A DNA stretch of 64,000 nt from NCBI GenBank assembly GCA_965202785.1, contig OZ241855.1, positions 1,440,001 to 1,504,000 of the forward strand, read 5' to 3'. Of the stretch, positions 10,297-44,198 are shown piece by piece. The notes beneath the pieces are model-generated. The model was not told the DNA's origin, did no database searches, and saw nothing but the letters and a program-made list of their open reading frames with translations. The translations under genes and the position numbers were made by a program. Within the stretch, counting starts at the first letter, position 1; every line of letters starts with the position of its first letter. This DNA comes from Thermodesulfobacteriota bacterium. GTDB taxonomy: Bacteria > Desulfobacterota_D > UBA1144 > Nemesobacterales > Nemesobacteraceae.

Positions 10297-11607
10297 TTGA
10301 ACCCTGACAACCCCGGTCTTTTCAGACCTAAAAAAGAATCTCTTCCTCTTCCCGAGAGAATGAGACCCGAGAGTATACAAGAAATGGTAGGTCAGGAGCA
10401 TCTGATAGGACCTGAAGGGCTTGTTACGAAAACTCTTGAAGCCGGAGGAGTGCATTCCATGATATTCTGGGGTCCTCCTGGGACGGGTAAAACGACTCTT
10501 TCAAGGCTTATCGCGGGCAGGGCGGGCGCAAGATTCATACAGATAAATGCGATTTCCTCCGGAGTCAGGGAACTTAGGGATATCGTAGCGGACGCGAGGG
10601 ATGCCCTTTACTCCGGGCGCAAGACCGTGCTTTTCATTGACGAGATACACAGATTCAACAAGGCACAGCAGGCGGCGCTTCTAAAAAGCGTCGAAGAAGG
10701 GGTCTTGGTGCTTATAGGGGCTACCACTGAGAATCCTTCGTTTGAAGTCATAAGTCCTCTTCTTTCCCGCTGTCAGGTTTATGTTCTTGATCCGCTTTCG
10801 GCACAGGACCTTGAACACATACTCGAAAAAGCTTTCTCCGAGGAAAAACTTATCGGGGATACCAATATCTCGGTTGAGGCTCGTGGCGAACTCATCGCTC
10901 TTTGCGGTGGAGACGCCAGAGTCATGCTGAACGCTCTTGAAGTCGCCTCTTCCCTTGTTCGTTCAAAGGAACTTTCCGAGATTGATACCGATCTGGTAAA
11001 GGAAATTTTTCAGAAAACCGGCCTTCTCTACGACAGGGCTGGGGAGGAGCACTACAATACGATTTCCGCTTTCATAAAAAGCGTCAGGGGAAGCGACCCC
11101 GACGCGGCGGTCTATTATCTGGCCAGAATGCTTGAGGCGGGAGAGGATCCGAAGTTCATCGCCAGGCGTCTTGTGATACTTGCTTCAGAGGATATTGGAA
11201 ACGCCGAACCTTACGCGCTTACCCTTGCGACCGACTGCTTCACGGCGGTTAATTACGTGGGGATGCCTGAGAGCAGGATAATCCTCTCTCAGGTTACAAC
11301 CTATCTTGCAAGCTGTCCCAAGAGTAACGCTGCATACAGGGCGATAAAGAAGGCCGAAAACGATGTGAGAAAAAATCCGGGACTCCAGATTCCGCTTCAC
11401 CTGAGAAACGCCCCCACGAAACTCATGAAGGATCTCGGCTACAAAAAGGGCTACAAGTACGCCCACGACTACGAAGACCATTTTGTCGAAGACGATTTTC
11501 TTCCCGAGGAGATAAAAGACAGCGTTTACTACGAACCCACGGACAAGGGAAGGGAGGCGAATCTCAAGAAGTATCTGGATGCCAGGTGGAAAAAGAGAAA
11601 AAAGTGA
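10297..11607 (+). CDS. rarA: Replication-associated recombination protein A (AAA+ ATPase)
   Basis: PLPERMRP, GPPGTGKT, FIDEIHRFNKAQQ, GATTENPSF, SEDIGNA, PLHLRNAPT; start uncertain. Confidence 0.96.
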   Translation: MNPDNPGLFRPKKESLPLPERMRPESIQEMVGQEHLIGPEGLVTKTLEAGGVHSMIFWGPPGTGKTTLSRLIAGRAGARFIQINAISSGVRELRDIVADARDALYSGRKTVLFIDEIHRFNKAQQAALLKSVEEGVLVLIGATTENPSFEVISPLLSRCQVYVLDPLSAQDLEHILEKAFSEEKLIGDTNISVEARGELIALCGGDARVMLNALEVASSLVRSKELSEIDTDLVKEIFQKTGLLYDRAGEEHYNTISAFIKSVRGSDPDAAVYYLARMLEAGEDPKFIARRLVILASEDIGNAEPYALTLATDCFTAVNYVGMPESRIILSQVTTYLASCPKSNAAYRAIKKAENDVRKNPGLQIPLHLRNAPTKLMKDLGYKKGYKYAHDYEDHFVEDDFLPEEIKDSVYYEPTDKGREANLKKYLDARWKKRKK

Positions 11608-11616
11608 CTGGGAAGA

Positions 11617-12021
11617 TCAGCCTTTTCTCTCTATAAGTTCGATTTTATAGGAATCGGGATCTTCGACGAAAGCTATCACTGTGGCTCCGTGTTTCATGGG
11701 CCCCGGAGCTCTGGTTACCCGCCCGCCAGCCTGTTCTATTTTCTCGCACGTCGCGTATATGTCCTCGACCCCGAACGCCATGTGTCCGTAGCCCTCTCCA
11801 AGTTCATAATGGGAGGTGCCCCAGTTATATGTAAGTTCAAGAAAAGGCTCCGTATCGCCGCCGTAACCCAGAAAGGCTAGTGTGAAGCGGCCTTCCGGAT
11901 AATCGGTTTTTCTGTGAAATTTAAGACCTATTACCTCAGTATAAAACGCGATTGACTTCTCAAGGTCGCCAACCCTTATCATTGTGTGAAGATATTGGGG
12001 AATTATATGCGATTCTACCAT
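11617..12021 (-). CDS. gloA: Lactoylglutathione lyase (glyoxalase I)
   Basis: [35 protein letters not shown]: all four metal ligands (H,E,H,E) present. Confidence 0.95.
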
Positions 12022-12170
12022 CAGACAGGGAGCCTCGCATCAATTTCACGGTTCACAGGGACTGTACTAATACCAGAACCCTCCCCATGCAGTCGCGCCA
12101 TTCCCAGACGCCGTATGTTCATTGCAGCGTTTGTGTCCGCATTGGAAGCAAACCCGCAATCAACACATAG
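11985..12170 (-). ncRNA. Predicted TnpB omega/reRNA (scaffold overlapping tnpB 3' end, guide in flanking DNA); boundaries inferred
   Basis: Position follows from established TnpB biology; only the terminal hairpin 12007-12040 is seen directly. Confidence 0.4.
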
Positions 12171-13285
12171 GAACCGTGCTTGAGATTTACGGTTCTCTCT
12201 ATCTGTATGCCCGCATTCGGAGCATGTCTGACTCGTATATGCGGGATTTACTTTTATAATCCTCCCGCACTTGTATTCAAGATTCCTTTTGATTTCCCCG
12301 AATGCGGTATCAAGTATTACTCTGTTAAGACCCGCCTTCTTTCTCACGTTCTTCCCCGGATTCTCTACGGTTCCTTTGGCGGAAGCGGTCATGTTGTTTA
12401 CCTTCAGGTCCTCCACTATCGCTGTCCCGCATTTCTCCGCAATTTCCTTTGTGGTCTTGTGAATCCAGCTCTTGCGGATGTTCGCGATCTTCCTGCTTAC
12501 CTTTCGGAGCTTCTTCTTCGTATCCTTCCTTCTATTGGAACCCTTGACCTGCCGGGCCATCCTTCTCTGGTACCGCTTCCGCCTTCTCTCTTTTTTCTCT
12601 AGGTCAGGCAGGAAGTAGAAATGCCCGTCCGAGGTGGCGACCTGCCGTGCATTCATGTCAATGCCTAGGACCTCCCCCACATCGGGTTGTCTCTTTACTT
12701 CCACTTCATAGAAGACAAAGGCTCTCCACCGGTGTCCGTCGTGGCGGAGCACCACCTGCTTGGGCGTGCTATTCTCATAAGGGTTCCCGCCCCTTCGGGT
12801 GAGCTTCATCCAGCCGACCAAGGGAACGCGAAGCAGGGAGTACTTCCCGTCAAGTTTCCTTATCCTGAAATTGCCCGTGTCGGGGAGTGTGAAGCCGGGG
12901 AAGGTCTTTGCCCTGCTCTTGGGTTTCGGGAAGCCTTTGTTGCCCGCTGTCGCTTCTTTAAGTGCGTCCGCAAAATACTTGAGGGAGTATCTGACCGGAG
13001 CAAAGGGAAGTTCTTGAAGCCAGTCCGTCTCATTCCTCAGCTTGGTGAACTCCATGCTGAGACTGAAGAAGCTGATCCACGGTCTCCTCCCTTTGCTGTG
13101 CTTGAATGCTTGATAGTCGGCAAGGTTCTTGTTGCGGAAATGGTTCCAGACGTACCGACAGGCTCCCGCAATCTGGAACATCTTCCTTGCCTTCGCTTTC
13201 GTGGTAGGCAGGACGAGAAACTCCACTGTGCGTATTTCCTTAATCATTACAGTGCATTATACCCGATCCCGGTAGGATTATATAT
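12000..13285 (-). mobile_element. Non-autonomous IS200/IS605-related (IS1341-like) element carrying only tnpB; ends approximate
   Basis: Solo tnpB with no tnpA; ATGCGA/TCGCAT inverted repeat at 12007-12040 near the 3' end; small hairpin around 13260-13278 near the 5' end. Confidence 0.6.
12021..13247 (-). CDS. tnpB: RNA-guided endonuclease TnpB
   Basis: N-terminal HTH (GACRYVWN), RuvC-I LGIDMN, RuvC-II IVEDL, CSECG/CVDCG zinc finger, Ruv[14 protein letters not shown]. Confidence 0.95.
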
Positions 13286-13342
13286 AATTCTTATTATACT
13301 CTTGTGATCTCCTGAGCGATAAATAGACCAGAGGCGTGTGAG

Positions 13343-13483
13343 ATGACCGGAAAGAAAGTCAAAAAACCGAAAACCAGAAAGCCTGTAGCCAAGAAACCCG
13401 GCAAGGTTATCCCCTCGAGAAAAGATGTCGAGACCAAGAAAAGATTCAGGAAACCGGACTGGGAAAAGGAAATCAAGAAATAA
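13343..13483 (+). CDS. Small lysine-rich basic protein (46 aa), not in the ORF track
   Basis: GAGG 8 nt upstream of ATG; MTGKKVKKPKTRKPVAKKPGKVIPSRKDVETKKRFRKPDWEKEIKK; stop 4 nt before the next ATG. Confidence 0.65.
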   Translation: MTGKKVKKPKTRKPVAKKPGKVIPSRKDVETKKRFRKPDWEKEIKK

Positions 13484-13487
13484 GCTC

Positions 13488-14543
13488 ATGGGGACTTCCG
13501 AGAACTTAAAAGCGGGGATAACCGGGGCGACGGGTTTTATCGGCGGCAAGCTCGCTGAAAAACTCGCAGATGACGGCTTTTCAATAAAATGCCTCGTAAG
13601 GGAAACAAGCGATACCGAGAAGCTGCGTTCCCTGGGTGCGGAGCTTGTCCACGGAGACCTTTGCGACTCCAGTTCGCTTCAAGCTTTTCCGGAAGAGTGC
13701 GATTACGTTTTTCATCTTGCTTCCAAAGTTTCTGACTGGGGACCGAGGGATGATTTTTTCAGGCAGAACGTTGAGGCGACGGAAACTCTTCTTGACTCTT
13801 CACGCGAGGCTGGGGTGAAAAGGTTCGTCTACATGAGTTCCTCTACCGTGATCTGGAATGCTTCTTTTCTGGGGACTGTCAACCTCAAGGATATAGATGA
13901 GACTTATCCCTACCCAAAGAGCCACCATAATTTTTATAATGAAACCAAGGCCTTATCCGAAAAACTTGTGAGAGAATATAACGGACGGGGAGGTATGGAA
14001 ACGGTCATATTAAGACCGTCAAACGTCTGGGGAGCCGGCGACACGGTCATACTTCCCAGAATAGCCGATGCCTGCCTGAAGGGGCTTTTGGTTAACATGG
14101 GTTTCAACAAAAAAATCGTTTCTCCATGCCATGTACTTAATCTGGTTCACGCCGCGGTGCTCTCGGCTCTTTCTCCCGCCGGAGCGGGCAATATCTACTT
14201 TGTAAACGATGGGGCGCGGATTGATAACCGCCGTTTTGTCTCAGATCAACTCTCTTCAATAGGAATTAAGTGGGAGACGGGAATCACCATACCTTATACC
14301 CTCGGGTATGCGGTTGCCTTCATTCTTGAGAAAATCTTTGAATTCAGGAAATCAAAAACTCCTCCTGTGCTTACCCGCTTCGGCGTTTCCGCTCTTTCAA
14401 AAAGTAGAACCTACAGCATAGAGAAGGCTAGAGGGGATTTAGGGTATGAACCGGTGTGCGGTTATGAGGAGGGAATGAAAGGGCTTGGGAAGTGGATTTC
14501 AGAGATCGGCGGTTATGAAAAACTCTTGGGAAAAGGGGAATGA
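13488..14543 (+). CDS. NAD-dependent epimerase/dehydratase (extended SDR, 3-beta-HSD-like)
   Basis: ITGATGFIGG, YNETK (YxxxK), LRPSNVWG; ATG at 13488 preferred. Confidence 0.9.
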   Translation: MGTSENLKAGITGATGFIGGKLAEKLADDGFSIKCLVRETSDTEKLRSLGAELVHGDLCDSSSLQAFPEECDYVFHLASKVSDWGPRDDFFRQNVEATETLLDSSREAGVKRFVYMSSSTVIWNASFLGTVNLKDIDETYPYPKSHHNFYNETKALSEKLVREYNGRGGMETVILRPSNVWGAGDTVILPRIADACLKGLLVNMGFNKKIVSPCHVLNLVHAAVLSALSPAGAGNIYFVNDGARIDNRRFVSDQLSSIGIKWETGITIPYTLGYAVAFILEKIFEFRKSKTPPVLTRFGVSALSKSRTYSIEKARGDLGYEPVCGYEEGMKGLGKWISEIGGYEKLLGKGE

Positions 14544-43994: not shown

Positions 43995-44025
43995 TTTTAC
44001 CTCCAATTAACCGTAACAGGTATGG

Positions 44026-44068
44026 AATTATATACTTGATTGTACGGAGGGTAATCAAGTATATAATT
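44026..44068. repeat. Perfect 16-bp inverted repeat with 11-nt spacer
   Basis: AATTATATACTTGATT (44026-44041) and AATCAAGTATATAATT (44053-44068). Confidence 0.95.
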
Positions 44069-44198
44069 GCTGTTTTTATGCGAAGTCCAGAAAATATCTT
44101 TTACTTGCCAGCGCCGTAATAGAACATATTTTGATAACGGGGCCACCGCATCCCGTTTTTCCTGAATGCGTATCCCCGTAATTTTATATGGATCTGCC

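Follow-up and report, generated by a model that had tools for sequence, protein, structure and literature searches.

A tnpB element whose right end appears to re-supply an in-phase start codon to gloA and to other host genes

In the genome of a Thermodesulfobacteriota bacterium (assembly GCA_965202785.1, contig OZ241855.1), a mobile element carrying tnpB adjoins gloA, the gene for lactoylglutathione lyase, and appears to provide its start codon. The locus was analyzed within a stretch of 64,000 nucleotides (nt) (positions 1,440,001 to 1,504,000 of the contig), which is called the window here and whose own numbering is used throughout. Our results support with good confidence the view that the right end of the element carries an outward translation start, and that an element sitting on the start of a gene re-supplies it with an in-phase ATG, gloA included. 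In the mechanism we propose, this right end would combine a GAGG motif, an ATG 24 or 25 nt from the tip at the tnpB stop, and a frame that stays open. Insertion would occur preferentially at ATG(R)|A, the usual context of a start codon, and a landing in the orientation of the gene would strand the host start codon on the left side. The in-phase ATG of the right end would then restart the host protein with a leader of 8-9 residues. At gloA, an enzyme with His12 would be startable only at the ATG of the element, and this start is probably coupled to the translation of tnpB, on a transcript from the retained gloA promoter.

The tnpB gene occupies 12021..13247 on the minus strand and encodes 408 amino acids (aa). 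Its product matched two Pfam domains above their cut-offs, OrfB_IS605 (PF01385, 73.9 bits) and Cas12f1-like_TNB (PF07282, 66.5 bits), and weakly a third, HTH_OrfB_IS605; phmmer aligned residues 16-383 with the ISDra2 TnpB chains 8bf8, 8exa, and 8h1j (E ~3e-27). The motifs GIDMN and IVEDL, read by eye in the translation, may hold residues of the catalytic Asp-Glu-Asp triad, and a CxxC...CxxC arrangement is visible as well. The stop codon TGA of tnpB (12023-12021) shares a base with the ATG of gloA (12021-12019), forming TGATG at 12023-12019. A reading of the letters alone (the sequence-only reading) had described this overlap and the position of the ATG inside an ATGCGA...TCGCAT hairpin, and both were seen on the minus strand.

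The genome of the window (G000; 1.64 Mb, one contig) held no second copy of this element, and its only other tnpB was 28% identical. Genomes of the same genus contained many tnpB copies with 74-83% protein identity. An alignment of 22 copies showed two sharp ends with unrelated flanks beyond them: the left end starts with GGGAATTATATAC, and the right end finishes with GTATATAATTCCC, the reverse complement of that consensus, which gives terminal inverted repeats of 13 nt. The alignment of the copies stopped sharply at ...TATAATTCCC. In the window, the element spans 13292..11998 on the minus strand (1.29 kb) and has tnpB as its only cargo. Its left repeat (13280..13292, AAGAATTATATAT) is degenerate, with mismatches to GGGAATTATATAC at three of the 13 positions, and its right repeat (11998..12010, GCATATAATTCCC) differs from GTATATAATTCCC at one. 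Homology to the other copies continued through ...ATATAATTCCC and ended at 11998; the ATG and the seven codons behind it (11998..12021, eight codons reading MVESHIIP) are therefore element DNA. The next codon, CAA (11997-11995), is the native codon 2 of gloA, fused in frame. A BLAST search with 12200..11850 in all 36 genomes of the genus gave tnpB and right-end matches that finished at query positions 203-216, close to the right end, and gloA matches that started at 204-207; no genome besides G000 matched across both sides of the junction.

These ends bear on several earlier proposals. Element-derived residues in GloA are present as proposed, but they number eight and not about seven. The right end had been placed at the hairpin; it is close by, nine bases beyond it. 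An end lying before the gloA ATG, which would leave the start codon to the host, was sought as a refutation, and the multi-copy alignment put the end after the ATG.

The gloA open reading frame (ORF) runs from 12021 to 11617 on the minus strand, encodes 134 aa, and matches the Pfam family Glyoxalase. Its host-derived part reaches from codon 2 (CAA) to the stop (11617..11997), and the matches of relatives begin at 11997-11994. GloA scored 156.8 bits with the NCBIfam equivalog glyox_I (TIGR00068, cut-off 120), with profile position 3 at residue 10-11, and aligned with residues 3-127 of Escherichia coli GlxI (1f9z), chain residue 3 falling at query residue 10. From the start of that alignment, His12 is the counterpart of the N-terminal metal ligand. 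The translation contains H12, the E of ELTYNWG, the H of GYGHMAF, and the E of IELIE, which are presumably the His/Glu/His/Glu metal ligands. Judged by these features, the lactoylglutathione lyase is intact. There is no further in-frame ATG, GTG, or TTG between 12021 and the His codon, and stops occur in frame just upstream.

A Shine-Dalgarno-like GAGG (12033..12036, minus strand), which would assist initiation, stands 11 nt before the ATG. In the sister copies, where the 16 nt before the ATG were compared in every copy, the spacing is about 7 nt in most. Both signals are part of the terminal hairpin (12007..12040), with GAGG in the 5' arm (ATGCGA, 12040-12035) and the ATG in the apical loop and the 3' arm (TCGCAT, 12012-12007).

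Relatives and metagenome contigs made it possible to reconstruct the empty gloA site, which had been out of reach for the sequence-only reading. A gloA gene was present in 39 of the 41 relatives searched, and its N-terminus was M-x-[YF]-LHTM in 28 of 29 loci, the remaining one having ATT at that codon. None of these 29 loci had the MVESHII N-terminus, for which tnpB-free relatives had been searched as a possible refutation, and none had an adjoining tnpB. Together with the position of the right end after the ATG, this agrees with the proposal that the element supplied the start and rescued gloA in frame. Upstream of gloA, relatives of the same genus carry ...CACAGAGTATAATAA, followed by 41 nt (TTGATAAGC...CATATG) that close on the native ATG. 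In the window, this upstream sequence is kept through GAGTATAATAA (to 13291) and resumes with CAATATC at 11997; the 41-nt leader and the native ATG are gone.

Assembled contigs from four public runs were compared with the locus. On gloA contigs of co-occurring relatives, the match ended at 11996-11997 and continued as the reverse complement of ...AATCGGACAAAC(C/T)GCGCGGACAGCTATATG; one contig of this empty-site type had 129 of 132 gloA letters identical. Relatives and contigs gave the same order for the empty site, namely native leader, ATG, and CAATATC. The same junction of the left end with the host was found on contigs with 94-100% identity (records 7, 15, 22, and 31) from four runs, each of a different study. 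A contig of 1492 nt spanned the junction of the right end with gloA without a difference, with 30 letters on the gloA side (threshold 31), and independent contigs did not reach the 31 letters required to bridge this junction: X2 record 7 had 30 of them and X4 record 11 had 19.

A promoter-like region of the host gene (13293..13323, minus strand; TTTATC at 13323-13318, a 19-nt spacer, and TATAAT at 13298-13293) directly abuts the left end of the element and aligns with a conserved ...TTTACCGCTCAGGAGATCACAGAGTATAATAA... upstream of gloA in relatives. We infer from this conservation that the region may still serve gloA as a promoter. A terminator scan gave no more terminator-like matches than expected from shuffled sequence.

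The donation of a start codon recurs in the family. We examined 45 sister copies (locus labels with L), which correspond to 42 independent sites, the same sites being occupied in two genomes by L038/L040, L107/L112, and L037/L160. Excluded from all counts were L169 (truncated right end) and L046/L162 (broken tnpB). An insertion was called start-displacing if it leaves the host start codon on the left side of the element or separates the first codons from the rest of the gene. In 15 such copies, each at another gene, the right-end ATG reads in frame into a full host ORF, which makes 15 of the 15 clear start-displacing sister insertions and answers positively whether other copies put this ATG in frame with their targets. 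Four of them have a right end with the ATG 24 nt from the tip: L034 (unnamed protein, fused ORF of 276 aa), L039 (BshB-like deacetylase, 226 aa), L054 (MJ1255-family glycosyltransferase, 364 aa), and L094 (GST-like protein, 208 aa). The 25-nt variant is found at L055 (GalE-like epimerase, 335 aa), L060 (argC, 353 aa), L061 (GspN-like protein, 309 aa), L096 (leuS, 825 aa), L099 (proC, 278 aa), L102 (murJ, 524 aa), L104 (MscS-like channel, 367 aa), L105 (nitrilase, 380 aa), L108 (queA, 343 aa), L165 (smpB, 158 aa), and L166 (recJ, at least 498 aa). Counting gloA, the right-end start recurs at 16 different genes.

In most of the fused proteins, position 1-3 of the NCBIfam profile falls at residue 9-12, which indicates that a leader of 8-9 residues replaces the native Met and sometimes one more residue. 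No second LeuRS above cut-off is encoded in the genome with leuS at L096, and no second MurJ in that with murJ at L102. The fused LeuRS begins with MGNKVYSSQKEY-; in the other genomes of the genus with a match, the LeuRS match begins at residue 5-9 of this fusion, and the empty leuS site reads ATGGAAA(A/G)AGA in five relatives. Among the other sister copies, four have a native ATG that survives 2-21 nt past the right end, with the right-end ATG in frame (argB, ruvC, an ADH, and an unnamed protein). In one copy, the mini-ORF of the right end stops on the native ATG (ATGA), and in another a right end without ATG abuts the native ATG of fmt. The remaining sister insertions are found before intact starts, within genes, or at a distance from genes.

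The design of the right end is well conserved. Its ATG was kept in 42 of the 45 copies (within 17 nt of the tnpB stop), and in 41 no stop interrupts its frame before the tip. Counted from the first base of the tnpB stop, the ATG had an offset of +2 (TGATG or TAATG) in nine copies, -5 in 26, -8 in six, and -17 in one. This recurrence of a start beside the stop shows that the arrangement in the window is no chance feature of one locus. The two length variants, with the ATG 24 or 25 nt from the tip, differ in where they sit: the 24-nt variant follows whole codons (TTG|, ATG|, ATGCAAGAG|, and ATG| in the window), and the 25-nt variant lies one base into a codon (ATGA|, ATGG|, GAGG|). Two right-end lengths matched to two insertion phases point to adaptation. 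The base after the cut was A in 24 of the 24 copies with confirmed duplications, and positions -4 to -1 of the 25-nt group were A in 13, T in 11, G in 13, and R in 16 of 16 copies. The motif ATGR|A also occurred at L033 and L037, neither of which is a gene start, and this hints at a sequence preference and not at survival alone.

IS200/IS605 elements insert 3' of a target of 4-5 nt. They are described as having neither terminal inverted repeats nor a target duplication (PMC13565253; see also PMC3119063). Direct repeats of 8 base pairs (bp) flank the present elements; they were perfect in 18 of the 35 sister copies with both ends located and matched at 7/8 positions in four more. With 13-nt inverted repeats and 8-bp duplications, the family is not classical IS200/IS605. 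No Y1 TnpA of the size found in IS200 was present in the 36 genomes of the genus, and PF01797 gave one weak match (27-37.5 bits) in 35 of them. This conserved ORF of about 290 aa with the weak Y1 domain (e.g., G000:C1:939596-939856) is possibly a domesticated transposase of the kind associated with repetitive extragenic palindromes.

IS1595 transposase domains were detected in 31 of the 36 genomes, and the end motif of the tnpB family was strongly enriched, with 24-42 matches per genome (at most one mismatch) against 0-2 for a reversed control. One IS1595 element of 1788 bp in a relative (L088) is bounded by the inverted repeat GGGAACTACATATTTAGGTTGAC, and its target duplication is 8/8. A transposon of 2651 bp (L072, 101-2751), whose cargo is a frameshifted IS1595 transposase gene and a split N6/N4 DNA methylase gene, has a perfect inverted repeat of 40 nt starting GGGAATTATAAAC and an 8/8 duplication; its repeat agrees with that of the tnpB family in 12 of 13 bases. 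At five further IS1595 loci, the search for inverted repeats gave no clean ends, so that only L088 could be delimited. Given the inverted-repeat ends and the 8-bp duplications, the tnpB elements were most likely moved in trans, as non-autonomous passengers, by a resident DDE transposase of the IS1595 type.

A DDE_3 transposase was considered as the partner and rejected: in L077 it belongs to a nested IS630-like element, which also stands alone at seven other loci. This element (L077/L133, 1421-2682) is 1262 bp long and encodes a DDE_3 transposase of 382 aa; it is nested in a tnpB element of a second family, 13 nt in from the left end. Further occurrences, with 88-100% identity, number at least seven and are spread over four genomes.

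The left end has features of its own. A short ORF runs from the stranded host start across the inverted repeat, and in five of 12 cases (L034, L039, L054, L094, and L108; ORFs of 18-22 codons) it stops on the tnpB start as TAATG, so that it may relay host ribosomes into tnpB. Within the element, a TATAAT (13256..13261, minus strand) lies 8 nt before the tnpB ATG, and (C/T)ATAAT-ATACTGTA-ATG is conserved at this place in the sister copies; it may be the -10 box of a nearly leaderless tnpB mRNA. A wider reading, for and against which we see the balance as even, would make this a family that lives on start codons. The ATGR|A motif would also be the target-adjacent motif (TAM) of TnpB, and the phasing of the left end would let the stranded start open the short ORF that ends on the start of tnpB. 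Ribosomes that begin at the host start would be handed on to tnpB and from there to the host protein, with GAGG and the in-phase ATG placed inside the last hairpin of an omega RNA. The guide RNA of each copy would consist of the first codons of the gene it occupies, movement would depend on a DDE transposase of the IS1595 type, and TnpB would police empty alleles. Insertion into an essential gene would then be harmless and hard to lose.

For the history of the gloA locus, the simplest account is an insertion followed by a deletion. The element would have inserted directly after the gloA ATG, duplicating CAATATCT, and a later deletion of about 51 nt would have taken the native leader with its ATG, the left-hand CAATATCT, and two left-end bases. 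This would have brought the conserved TATAAT (13298-13293) of the gloA promoter up to the element. An insertion into the first codons of gloA had been proposed from the letters; the right end indeed abuts codon 2, but the 41-nt leader and the native ATG are absent, so a deletion occurred besides the insertion. The same outcome could have arisen if the element entered the gloA promoter at cag|AGTATAAT, with a left end that is complete but mutated (GG to AA), and if a deletion of about 51 nt starting exactly from the right end then joined it to codon 2, only the in-frame product surviving. We regard this second course as unlikely, though as a serious candidate. It accords with the tabulated duplications, which begin with A in 24 of 24 copies, where CAATATCT begins with C, and with the existence of sister left ends that start AGG, AGA, or TGA; deletion from the exact end of a transposon is also a known product of DDE transposases. 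It demands, however, two point changes and a deletion that ends precisely between codons 1 and 2, and four sister copies of the 24-nt variant follow whole host codons (L034, L054, and L094 after the start codon, L039 after codon 3), which makes direct insertion after an ATG a habit of the family. The IS1595 transposase of G000 is reduced to a fragment of 44 residues with a stop codon, and with the left end damaged as well, the window copy is probably immobile.

The last 97 nt of the element (11998..12094, minus strand) form a conserved structured region that resembles an omega RNA. Two hairpins were obtained in every copy folded individually. In an alignment of 21 copies whose structure was fixed by hand, 91.2% of 420 cells were paired, against 18-33% when partners were slid; the inner helix of the first hairpin was left uncounted, the subfamilies being offset there by one column. 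Compensatory changes occurred in five of 20 pairs, and none of 500 shuffles reached the covariation score. The outer stem of the terminal hairpin covaries (AU 10, GU 9, and GC 2 at columns 60/90). A conserved, covarying structure of this kind fits an omega RNA. A scan of 11500-13600 with Rfam (E up to 1) found no family for the structured region and no intron, only two sub-threshold chance matches. From the TnpB paradigm and the mapped right end, the guide is predicted to be the 16-20 nt past that end (CAATATCTTCACACAATGAT, 11978..11997, minus strand), which are codons 2-8 of gloA; it starts at 11997 (CAATATC...), 3 nt downstream of the guide proposed earlier.

The structure might instead be a DNA-level end bound by the transposase, or a translational operator, with TnpB no longer guided by the start of the flanking gene. 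Movement of the DDE type makes subterminal DNA sites matter, Rfam gave no match, and a fixed TAM is hard to square with duplications that differ between copies. We nevertheless consider this improbable. Covariation through G-U intermediates (AU 10, GU 9, GC 2, and several GC/GU columns) suits RNA better than duplex DNA, and the structure overlaps the 3' end of tnpB, as is established for ISDra2-type systems. In addition, a 201-bp derivative (L079) keeps exactly the structured region between its ends, and ATGR stands at a fixed distance in the left flank, as a TAM would.

Several results weigh against start-codon donation by the right end. In the window, the GAGG stands 11 nt from the ATG, further than is ideal, and both lie within a hairpin. 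The consensus promoter scan called no promoter, the retained gloA region included. One start-displacing copy, L100, is out of frame, and its 77-aa ORF matches no family; at least 15 of 16 insertions in frame would have a probability of 33/3^16 (~8e-7) under random phase, a value that is indicative only, as the insertion classes were assigned by eye once the pattern had been seen. No IS1595 transposase was found in G014, G015, and G024, which do carry sister copies, and G000 has the fragment alone. The window copy has no target duplication (its flanking repeat matches at 1/8 positions) and a damaged left end, and its history consequently requires an extra deletion. Even so, it is very improbable that the gloA fusion is a functionless accident, with gloA dead or started otherwise and the in-frame pattern a product of target motif and element geometry: gloA is known to be dispensable in many bacteria, and a fixed phase after ATG or ATGR would by itself frame the right-end ATG at true start codons, but the sole LeuRS and the sole MurJ gene of their genomes have no other start, insertions away from the start codon are also in frame (L039 after codon 3, L104 after four codons and one base, smpB about ten codons in), the right-end lengths match the insertion phases, and no other canonical gloA start keeps His12.

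TnpB elements, from which Cas12 descends, are believed to spread with IS200/IS605 or IS607 transposases. How they avoid harming their hosts is an open theme, for which IStrons use splicing. With ISDra2-type TnpB and omega RNA, the present family shares the protein domains, a covarying structure over the 3' end of tnpB up to the right end, and a short left-flank motif (here ATGR) where a TAM would lie. It differs from ISDra2 and other IS200/IS605 elements in its 13-nt inverted repeats and 8-bp duplications, and from ISDra2-type elements in a right end that doubles as a translation start for a host gene. Insertion sequences with outward promoters are similar in that the end of a mobile element gives expression signals to an adjacent host gene; IS1341 upstream of an alanine carrier gene reportedly switches on its neighbor in this way. 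In our case no promoter is added, and an in-frame start codon replaces the native one. The 8-bp duplications and the termini GGGAA(C/T)TA... are shared with IS1595 and its derivatives; in contrast to these, the element encodes no DDE transposase, and its cargo is tnpB and a predicted structured RNA region.

IStrons also place a tnpB-bearing element inside a gene without destroying it (PMC4227781). Here, Rfam detected no group I intron, and harmlessness would come from a new in-phase start and not from splicing. Fanzor proteins are TnpB-type passengers of eukaryotic transposons with inverted repeats and target duplications (PMC3627910). The present case is bacterial, its likely partner is of the IS1595 type, and its right end joins directly onto host gene starts. 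Our literature search, in which subscription journals were thinly covered, found no account of tnpB between IS1595-type ends or of a transposon end that donates start codons.

The family suggests a second, translation-level route to harmless insertion, tolerated even by leuS and murJ, and tnpB with a structured RNA region between DDE-type ends would be a bacterial counterpart of Fanzor. Gene callers will give chimeric N-termini for such host genes. Expression of the host gene may be tied to the binding of TnpB to its RNA, and the right end could be a compact, portable module for translational coupling.

Other sequences related to the element ends were observed. The second tnpB family is represented in G000 outside the window (G000:C1:764930-766183, L002 ~1158-2411) by a gene for 398 aa, the 28% identical tnpB mentioned above. 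Its ends, GGGATTTATGTATTTAAGTTGAC ... GTCAACTTAAATACATAATTCCC, closely resemble the inverted repeat of the IS1595 element L088; the right end of this copy lies 5 nt before the next host ATG, and the tnpB stop is 5 nt inside the end. In the window, a relic of 49 bp (44023-44071) joins a left end to a right end of the family found at gloA (TGGAATTATATACTTGATTG...GGGTAATCAAGTATATAATTGCT) and looks like a copy without its core. A zinc-ribbon ORF on the minus strand, starting with MPLYEYECSDCG, has this relic about 27 nt upstream.

Miniature forms exist as well. L079 (101-301; 201 bp, with an 8/8 duplication, AAAAATCT) consists of two ends and the structured 3' region without tnpB, and short matches to the right end only were found in several other genomes of the genus. 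At L080 and L081 (both ~101-133), right- and left-end repeats stand back to back with a spacer of 7 nt (GTATATAATTCCC-ATTCAAT-GGGACTTATATAC), an arrangement that resembles a circle junction or two abutting relics. An element of 621 bp (L078, 101-721) has similar ends, a 7/8 duplication, and, as its sole cargo, a gene for a STAS-domain protein of 130 aa.

A conserved promoter beside thiD (TTGAAA, 16 nt, TATAAT, TTCCC) resembles the end of the element; the ends mimic a host -10 region. At L038/L040, a promoter of this kind has the element in its -35 box. Pairs resembling terminal inverted repeats at thiD (L073-L076; G000:C1:780946-781967) were considered as elements and rejected, as they are host promoter sequence. 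Near gloA, a very basic ORF of about 46 aa (MTGKKVKKPKTRKPVAKKPGK..., 13343-13483, plus strand) diverges from gloA directly upstream of an epimerase gene, and its position is conserved in relatives.

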